Shown here: positions 56,822-58,062 of the stretch, piece after piece | Layout of the letters: each line of letters begins with the position of its first letter | How positions within the stretch are numbered: the first letter of the stretch is position 1 | DNA from: Octopus vulgaris | Lineage: Eukaryota | Length of the DNA stretch: 64,000 nt | Assembly (NCBI GenBank): GCA_951406725.2 | Contig: OX597832.1 | Location: forward strand, 9,362,001 to 9,426,000 | Direction of reading: 5' to 3' | The notes under the pieces: generated by a model | Seen by the model: only the letters and a program-made list of their open reading frames with translations | Told to the model about the DNA's origin: nothing | The model's database searches: none | Translations under genes and position numbers: made by a program

Positions 56822-56960
56822 TATATATATATATATATATATATATATATATATATATATATATATATATATATATATATATATATATATATATATATAT
56901 ATATATATATATATATATATATATATATATATATATATATATATATATATATATATATAT
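56822..56960. repeat. (TA)n microsatellite
   Basis: Direct reading. Confidence 0.95.
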
Positions 56961-57260
56961 AATGATAAGAGTAAATAATTTCTATAAAGGCTTTTAAAAA
57001 AAAAACAATTATTTACTGGTAGAATTCGGTATGTAAATATAGCCGATTACCGGCAGGAACTTCTGTGAAGTTCAGTATATATATTGTATATAAGAAAAAG
57101 GGACAGGCAAAACAGGTTGCTTGACCGCATACCGAAAAAATAGAAATAGCAGTCAAGAATGCTTATTTCTATCAAAGTTGGACTCCGGGCATGACAGACC
57201 CTGTAATTCACATATGCAAAACAGAAGGAATAGATAACGAATACGAAGTCTGGCGGTTAT

Positions 57261-57371
57261 CTGTGAACATCATGTTTCTGGATTATAAACATATTGAATA
57301 TATATTCCATATATTTTTGATATATATTTCATATATATTGCAAATATATTTCACATCCTTCTTCAGCACAG
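57261..57371 (-). ncRNA. Type I hammerhead, long stem II (inverted copy)
   Basis: Reverse complement of 57874-57984. Confidence 0.7.
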
Positions 57372-57873
57372 CTTTCCATTGAAAAAGATTTATCATAGAT
57401 TTATCAAATGCTACGTACCTCAAACCTTCTGACCATGCGACATCAAAATATTTGAAGAAAGTGAGCAAAGGCTAAATCTACATAGACGTTTGAATTCATA
57501 AATCTTCCCTCCGCGGTCAAGCAACCTGTTTTGCCTGTCCCTTTTTCTTATATACAATATACAGAAGTTCCTGCCGGTAATCGGCTATATTTACATACCG
57601 AATTCTACCAGTAAATAATTGGGGTTTTTTTAAAAGCCTTTATAGAAATTATTTACTCTTATCATTATATTACTATTTGGATTTTTCACTCCCTTTGACA
57701 GCCTATTTTTGTAATGCGCATGGCAGAATTTTGGAGGGAAGATTTATGAATTCAAACGTCTATGTAGATTTAGCCTTTGCTCACTTTCTTCAAATATTTT
57801 GATGTCGCATGGTCAGAAGGTTTGAGGTACGTAGCATTTGATAAATCTATGATAAATCTTTTTCAATGGAAAG

Positions 57874-57984
57874 CTGTGCTGAAGAAGGATGTGAAATATA
57901 TTTGCAATATATATGAAATATATATCAAAAATATATGGAATATATATTCAATATGTTTATAATCCAGAAACATGATGTTCACAG
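57874..57984 (+). ncRNA. Type I hammerhead, long AU-rich stem II
   Basis: CUGUG-CUGAAGA-A-GGAU..AUCC-A-GAAA-CAUGAUG-UU-CACAG. Confidence 0.7.
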
Positions 57985-58062
57985 ATAACCGCCAGACTTC
58001 GTATTCGTTATCTATTCCTTCTGTTTTGCATATATGAATTACAGGGTCTGTCGTTTGTTTTC

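Follow-up and report, generated by a model that had tools for sequence, protein, structure and literature searches.

A composite insert lying between two (TA)n arrays in the genome of Octopus vulgaris is very probably a complex insertion of the Penelope-like element (PLE) type, assembled from hammerhead-bearing sequence in both orientations. We examined a window of 64,000 nucleotides (GenBank assembly GCA_951406725.2, contig OX597832.1, positions 9,362,001 to 9,426,000 of the forward strand), which is AT-rich and dense in microsatellites; all coordinates below are those of the window. The fuller account that we favour, to which we assign a somewhat better than even chance, is that the donor was a short, non-coding linear tandem of a ~610-nt unit with the order y-B'-x'-A'. 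The layout of the insertion is ordinary and known for PLEs, and alone it does not demonstrate copying of circular RNA.

Self-BLAST of positions 56940-58160 recovered the order A-x-B-A'-y-B' at 56957-58052, as the initial annotation had mapped it, with both inverted pairs in place (Table 1). B and B' are identical at 319 of 320 positions (E 3e-165), so that their description as almost identical over 320 bp held, and A and A' are clearly less similar, with 155 of 172 alignment columns identical (E 6e-66); the differences amount to one 14-nt indel and three adjacent substitutions. Read along the minus strand, the left part is B'-x'-A'-(AT)n, and along the plus strand the right part is A'-y-B'. 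A dust-filtered self-BLAST of the entire window reported no other repeats reaching both 80 nt and 89% identity. The only difference between B and B', an A/G transition on the sense strand, is compatible with RNA editing but proves nothing by itself. With a divergence of 0.3% (95% interval 0.008-1.7%), the recent event proposed in the annotation is reasonable, although inverted repeats can also be homogenised. The annotated extent stopped too early: the layout was right, but the composite insert runs to 58155 and includes a segment, z, that had been missed.

Table 1 Features of the composite insert, its flanks and related elements in the window
Feature	Position	Strand	Remarks
Type I hammerhead element, independent	36660-36950	-	5'-truncated; (TA)n end; post-hammerhead hairpin region common with the locus
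(TA)70 microsatellite	56822-56961		Left flank, probable target
A	56957-57128	-	3' end of the left, inverted copy; distal ~115 nt form a structured extension
x	57129-57192 (64 nt)	-	Unique spacer, hairpin region
B	57193-57512	-	5'-truncated portion of the inverted copy
Type I hammerhead, minus copy	57261-57371	-	Core at 57366; identical to the plus copy
B|A' head-to-head inversion junction	57512-57513		Spanned by a 6-bp palindrome (57511-57516)
A'	57513-57670	+	5'-truncated upstream copy as pseudo-LTR; lacks 14 nt of A
y	57671-57732 (62 nt)	+	Unique spacer, at which the unit body presumably starts
B'	57733-58052	+	Body carrying the hammerhead
Type I hammerhead, plus copy	57874-57984	+	Core CUGAAGA at 57879; pattern and folding
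z	58053-58155 (103 nt)	+	3' end of a second repeat family; stands where x'-A' is expected
(TA)21 microsatellite	58156-58197		Right flank
PLE reverse-transcriptase remnant	58218-58971	+	Frameshifted; at most 60% identity to P0126 over 88 aa; starts just past (TA)21

This organisation matches the one described for PLEs, in agreement with the proposal in the annotation of a strand-inverting retrotransposition of a hammerhead-bearing, PLE-type sequence from a tandem (pseudo-LTR) source. These elements typically show a partial tandem whose upstream pseudo-LTR (pLTR) is adjoined by a 5'-truncated copy in inverted orientation (PMC8557442), head-to-head is their most frequent arrangement, for which self-priming has been proposed (PMC3846280), and inverted pLTRs are given as a curation feature (PMC8969392). 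A PLE protein, once purified, cuts the two target strands and extends each, favours AT-rich DNA and initiates internally on RNA (PMC11167929), and pLTR sequences suffice to mobilise unrelated DNA in trans (PMC3846280). Canonical EN+ PLEs (Penelope/Poseidon, Neptune, Nematis; PMC3846280, PMC8557442) share with the locus the partial pseudo-LTR tandem, which is probable here, the head-to-head inverted copy, a hammerhead near the 3' end and an AT-rich target. Unlike them, the locus has no detected reverse transcriptase (RT) or endonuclease open reading frame (ORF), an inferred unit of only ~610 nt, a right end taken from another family and an extension of ~115 nt instead of tails of 30-40 nt. Its B|A' junction, which shows no microhomology, no inserted bases and no long palindrome, also differs in the first and last of these respects from the self-primed junctions of PMC3846280.

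In the L1 twin-priming inversion, two oppositely oriented 5'-truncated cDNAs are joined head-to-head; they derive from largely non-overlapping segments and carry a poly(A) tail. The locus resembles such inversions in its oppositely oriented, 5'-truncated pieces joined head-to-head. We nevertheless rejected this mechanism, since A and B each occur twice, any linear template would make the arms overlap by 320 nt, and a poly(A) tail is missing.

Each B copy contains one type I hammerhead ribozyme (HHR), and the two lie on opposite strands, 513 nt apart. The sequence (CUGUG-CUGAAGA-A-GGAU...AUCC-A-GAAA-C-AUGAU-GUU-CACAG) combines, in the plus copy, a 5-bp helix I, an extra A at 57886, a helix II region of 81 nt that is AT-rich and contains an 11-nt internal repeat, a further extra A at 57966 preceding GAAA, a short helix III with a 5-nt loop and a GUU cleavage triplet at 57977-57979. 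The G10.1-C11.1 pair before GAAA forms only if the additional A at 57966 is left unpaired. Folding of the 131-nt hammerhead region produced helices I, II and III (z -2.2; 5 of 200 shuffles equally good). A type I HHR pattern, which was defined after the motif had been seen, matched five times in the 64 kb (57879+, 57366-, 36942-, 27575- and 11684-), compared with a mean of 0.05 and a maximum of 1 in 100 block shuffles, and found no second ribozyme in A. All five matches are located 108-405 nt upstream of (TA)6+, a position that 30% of random sites share at 410 nt. The hammerheads at 27575 (-) and 11684 (-) have helix II regions of 51-56 nt and stand ~108 nt upstream of (TA)n; the former has an extra C where that of the locus has the extra A at 57966. 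Loop 3 of the locus HHR has 5 nt and is only a near-palindrome, whereas the three other HHRs of the window have perfect 4-nt palindromes. At gathering score, Rfam recognised nothing in the 64 kb, and its 26 weak matches at 56600-58200 included no hammerhead family, the top ones being due to (AT)n; the HHR call therefore rests on pattern and folding.

Compared with the minimal HHR of metazoan PLEs (PMC4209133), that of the locus has the same extra base at 9/10.1 (A 57886), the same 5-bp helix I and the same kind of opposite-strand pair, such dual HHRs 100-700 bp apart having been reported in 2014 in Schistosoma mansoni. It differs in its 81-nt AT-rich helix II, the additional A between C11.1 and G12 and the GUU triplet, and its imperfect 5-nt loop departs from the palindrome of positions 15.2-16.2 plus loop 3. 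The predicted pair probability of helix I is 0.97 in the local fold, 0.11 in the left arm and 0.00 in both the right arm and the read-through RNA, in which B and B' pair with each other and bury the ribozyme. Self-cleavage at the locus appears doubtful on these models, and the locus, with one HHR per strand and the ribozyme buried in duplex, is predicted to be a dead copy. A read-through transcript would form double-stranded RNA of 320 bp, a possible substrate for editing or for small-RNA production.

The region downstream of the hammerhead gave information on the native order of its parts. It aligns with the equivalent region of the independent HHR at 36942 with a score of 91, against a maximum of 62 in 1000 shuffles, and the alignment passes uninterrupted across both the B'|x' and the x'|A' boundaries, so that HHR-x'-A' is the order native to this family of 3' ends. 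The relative at 36.9 kb stops in (TA)n about 50 nt into the equivalent of A', ~115 nt earlier than A. It also contains the TAGAAA...TTTCTA stem of x and the motif that follows. A profile built from the two post-HHR regions found, at E<1, only these two loci and two pieces of the right arm. The x'-A segment folds much better than shuffled sequences (z -4.8, 0/100), and a 9-bp stem joins x' to the distal part of A; together, these features suggest that A acts as one RNA domain and is not captured flank. RNAalifold on the two sequences yielded 12 pairs and no double-sided changes, that is, no covariation support for the shared hairpins. As the 36.9-kb element has no adjoining PLE ORF, its PLE identity rests on its HHR and (TA)n end only; an RT fragment upstream of it carries what we take to be a LINE-like motif. 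The hairpin region after the HHR, common to two diverged elements, is a candidate protein-binding or initiation signal.

The conserved post-HHR motif had no match in one scan of bacterial and archaeal genomes, which served as a contamination test. In the supplements of PMC8557442 it had one isolated 12-nt match, with flanks unlike the element, and in that of PMC13282606 (5,371 characters) no DNA motif match; no family consensus was found in either. The main text of PMC13282606 does not mention hammerheads, and PMC8557442 was the only match in the open literature searched for octopus, Penelope and hammerhead together. The HHR family of the locus may thus be undescribed in that literature.

Under the linear-tandem account, the donor would have been a short PLE derivative without coding capacity, its ~610-nt unit arranged as a linear partial tandem A'-y-B'-x'-A', and a PLE reverse transcriptase/GIY-YIG endonuclease acting in trans would have cut an AT array. 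On one strand, priming at the 3' end of A' through a 5-nt match (TATAT) and copying back to the start of B' would have produced the left, inverted and truncated copy (B'-x'-A' on the minus strand). On the opposite strand, B'-y-A' would have been copied, so that A' would correspond to the pLTR and y-B' to the body, and the two 5'-truncated ends would then have been joined blunt, head-to-head. Alternatively, fold-back of one long cDNA could lead to the same product. At the right end, x'-A' would have been replaced by z, either through a later insertion with deletion or through a template switch. The short unit, the priming on both strands, the mobilisation in trans and the origin of z are all inferred.

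At the left boundary, TATAT occurs both in the (TA)70 flank and where A' meets y, consistent with priming at an internal AT site through a short match. The right end belongs to another family. A target-site duplication would be masked within the (TA)n flanks. Segment z contains a 20-nt unit in 4.3 copies, and its ends match the minus strand at 29502-29529 (27/28) and 29478-29501 (23/24). The homologous family, whose 3' end at 29478-29675 (-) is similar to 51049-51206, has one copy of the 20-nt unit and its own degenerate HHR-like motif upstream, near 29600.

A linear A'-y-B'-x'-A' template would have provided both B copies from one template copy and the A copies from two, whereas copies of A made from a single circle should be identical at birth. 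In fact, we counted 1 difference in 320 positions for B and 2 events (4 counted changes) in ~165 for A, a contrast with p 0.27 by events and 0.048 by columns that leans weakly towards the linear tandem. The differences between A and A' sit at slippage-prone sites. The version with GGG has a terminal hairpin of -12.8 instead of -8.5 kcal/mol, and A retains a hairpin arm lost from A'; since each A copy keeps a hairpin feature that is lost or weakened in the other, each apparently underwent a change of its own. The locus, which is clean, young and very short, permits template copies to be distinguished; if B derives from one copy and A from two, this would speak for a linear tandem donor rather than a circle in PLE replication.

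The ~600-nt monomer y-B'-x'-A' proposed in the annotation is plausible, the cyclic unit measuring 618 nt if A is counted and 604 nt if A' is, and a non-coding unit of 604-618 nt is the simplest, if unproven, source. For such a monomer to be genuine, the two junctions A'|y and y|B' must be native, and each was seen only once in the 64-kb window, where y, the 5' part of B and the distal part of A also had no second copy. The A'-y-B' arrangement fits a partial tandem; the downstream copy of A' is absent from the plus strand and the unit rests on this one locus. It is conceivable, although we consider it rather unlikely, that no ~600-nt unit existed and that the donor was either a long autonomous PLE, of 3-4 kb, or a derivative that arose once, with A'|y or y|B' unique to this locus. 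One of these junctions would then reflect a truncation, template jump, deletion or host capture, and the cyclic order would be a by-product of stacked 5'-truncated copies. PLE copies are indeed mostly 5'-truncated and stacked, and their pLTRs may enclose captured unrelated DNA (PMC3846280). Moreover, y and the 5' part of B', which have no homologue in the window, are not unusually structured (z -1.1; 16 of 100 shuffles equally good), and the left arm stops exactly where y and B' meet, which could mark a real RNA 5' end. However, such a donor calls for one more junction to have formed, the y|B' boundary is set only by the stop of the left arm, a stop that needs no special cause, and the 200 nt upstream of the HHR showed no endonuclease-like coding in tests that were weak and covered one PLE clade only.

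Within y, a 3'-splice-site-like motif is present at 57684-57701 (+), motifs of this kind occurring in 43 of 2064 62-nt bins (2% background). It is only a lead towards a putative intron in the 5'-UTR that would span A'|y, like those of Penelope and Chlamys-3. A separate AG motif at 57857-57873 (+), directly 5' of helix I of the HHR, recalls D. virilis Penelope, in which an intron ends at helix I (PMC4209133).

The annotation had regarded a circular RNA as a possible template, a part of its interpretation that our results did not bear out. The idea is not new for PLE tandems, for which circular templates were already proposed in 2014 (PMC4209133). Its explicit form, a retrozyme-type circular donor of ~610 nt, generated by double HHR cleavage and ligation and copied from two RT start points across the ligation site, appears improbable to us. 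The cyclic order fits it, and the HHR site traversed by each arm is intact; folded as a circle, the joined unit surpasses its shuffles (z -4.3, 0/30), and it is non-coding with a GC content of 32%, which places it in the range of low GC known from animal retrozymes (PMC7229834). Its length also lies within the 51-972 bp of vertebrate retrozyme units (bioRxiv 10.64898/2026.07.22.740005). However, a linear tandem yields the same order, and the arms, of 556 and 540 nt, are both shorter than the unit, so that its length is reached by neither; the longest same-strand stretch is 556 nt, there is no same-strand repeat, and A and A' differ. The folding signal also occurs in the linear left arm (z -3.4, 0/30), largely from x'-A, and the antisense circle folds well too (z -3.1, 0/30). 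The HHR itself is atypical, with the extra A before GAAA, the GUU triplet and the imperfect loop 3 palindrome, and its helix I largely dissolves in the arms (0.00-0.11). Metazoan PLE HHRs cleave poorly (PMC4209133), 8 of 9 tested Xenopus retrozyme dimers remained uncleaved (bioRxiv 10.64898/2026.07.22.740005) and uncleaved RNA was accepted in vitro by a PLE protein (PMC11167929). With its HHRs on opposite strands, one per strand, the locus cannot release a circle. A composite version, in which a ~610-nt hammerhead retrozyme family would circularise and a PLE enzyme would copy it from two starts before switching onto the RNA of a second PLE family, has in our view a similarly small likelihood. 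If a circle was nevertheless the template, the locus would be a genomic fossil of reverse transcription on circular RNA, and the 2014 model would become directly testable.

Non-LTR animal retrozymes (PMC7229834, bioRxiv 10.64898/2026.07.22.740005) are comparable to the locus in being non-coding, with a GC content under 45% (0.32 here) and a type I HHR, in their tandem unit, putative here, and in their likely dependence on PLEs. Retrozymes of the first source are same-strand tandems with circular RNAs of ~170-400 nt, and those of the preprint have units of 51-972 bp derived from PLE pLTRs, with 1 of 9 dimers cleaved. By contrast, the locus has no same-strand HHR tandem but one HHR per strand, although its donor might differ; its unit falls outside the first size range and inside the second. 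Another point of comparison is provided by the non-autonomous PLEs of Chlamys, such as MRC1 (PMC8557442), which are, as the donor here would be, short non-coding pLTR units that keep the 3' end of an autonomous family. Unlike the locus, they are green algal and mostly lack an HHR.

Two further explanations place the inversion outside retrotransposition. A later DNA-level rearrangement of a simple tandem, by fork template switch or fold-back repair, could have duplicated and inverted B, which would also accommodate near-identical B copies beside more diverged A copies as a result of recent DNA copying. The flanking (TA)n arrays, which are self-complementary and fragile, are compatible with such an event. 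Nonetheless, the junction lacks microhomology and, head-to-head being the commonest PLE product (PMC3846280), a second mechanism is unneeded; we judge this possibility very improbable. We hold an assembly artefact, from collapsed repeats or from two haplotypes joined in inverted orientation, to be extremely improbable. The window contains a 100-N scaffold gap (13160-13259), and inverted PLE structures are known to trouble short-read assemblies (PMC8557442); however, that gap is 44 kb from the locus, no N occurs near the latter, x and y are unique, the junctions are all clean and, unlike in a fold-back chimera, the arms are neither identical nor symmetric about the centre.

The insert revealed no ORF, its longest stop-free frames being shorter than 95 aa. 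The telomerase-like RT and GIY-YIG ORF that characterise an autonomous EN+ PLE were not found at the locus. We searched with a set of 151 PLE proteins and a profile made from those with 600 aa or more (41 proteins), which represent one PLE clade, presumably Nematis-like; the P0001 search behind this set had yielded 12,291 proteins at E<=0.001, the best 150 of 12,291 being used. Inside the insert there was no profile domain, and the best tblastn match among the 151 queries had E 0.002 in AT-rich sequence. The 73-aa frame across A'-y-B', compared with proteins of similar size, and the 62-aa frame in B', compared with longer ones, had no protein candidates, both weak negatives, and Pfam recognised none of the 6 sense-strand frames (X at stops), while the control with true PLE proteins also gave 0 of 2 for RT or GIY-YIG. 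A degenerate ORF end of another PLE clade may therefore lie within the insert.

Elsewhere in the window, the protein set and the profile located PLE remnants at 3-146, 494-661, 8673-8867, 33174-34097 and 58218-58971. In the last of these, the stop-free frame 58281-58730 had one relative, P0001 (E 6e-15, 45% identity), and a weak RVT_1 match. We rejected the part at 58344-58971 as the parent ORF of the insert, to which it is unlinked: it is a frameshifted fragment without either end, situated past z and (TA)21. The remnants at 3-661 (-) and 8673-8867 (+) belong to the same clade as P0001. At 33174-34097, an endonuclease fragment on the minus strand abuts an N-terminal fragment on the plus strand, and this 33.2-34.1 kb region is probably a second, older head-to-head PLE inversion. 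The locus is a further example of a tandem-plus-inverted PLE insertion, in a window that has three other HHR motifs and this second probable PLE inversion.

Other repeats were also observed. A sigma-70 promoter scan was disregarded, being inapplicable to a eukaryote. ARAGORN called no genes in the window, leaving uncalled a tRNA-like SINE head at 56673-56803 (-), which has A-box and B-box-like motifs, adjoins the left (TC)n(TA)n and has no second copy in the window. A dispersed repeat of ~400 nt, often with internal microsatellites and probably a SINE, is present in at least 6 copies (24514-24955, 46601-47011, 31934-32307, 36367-36609, 51417-51758 and 11395-12152).
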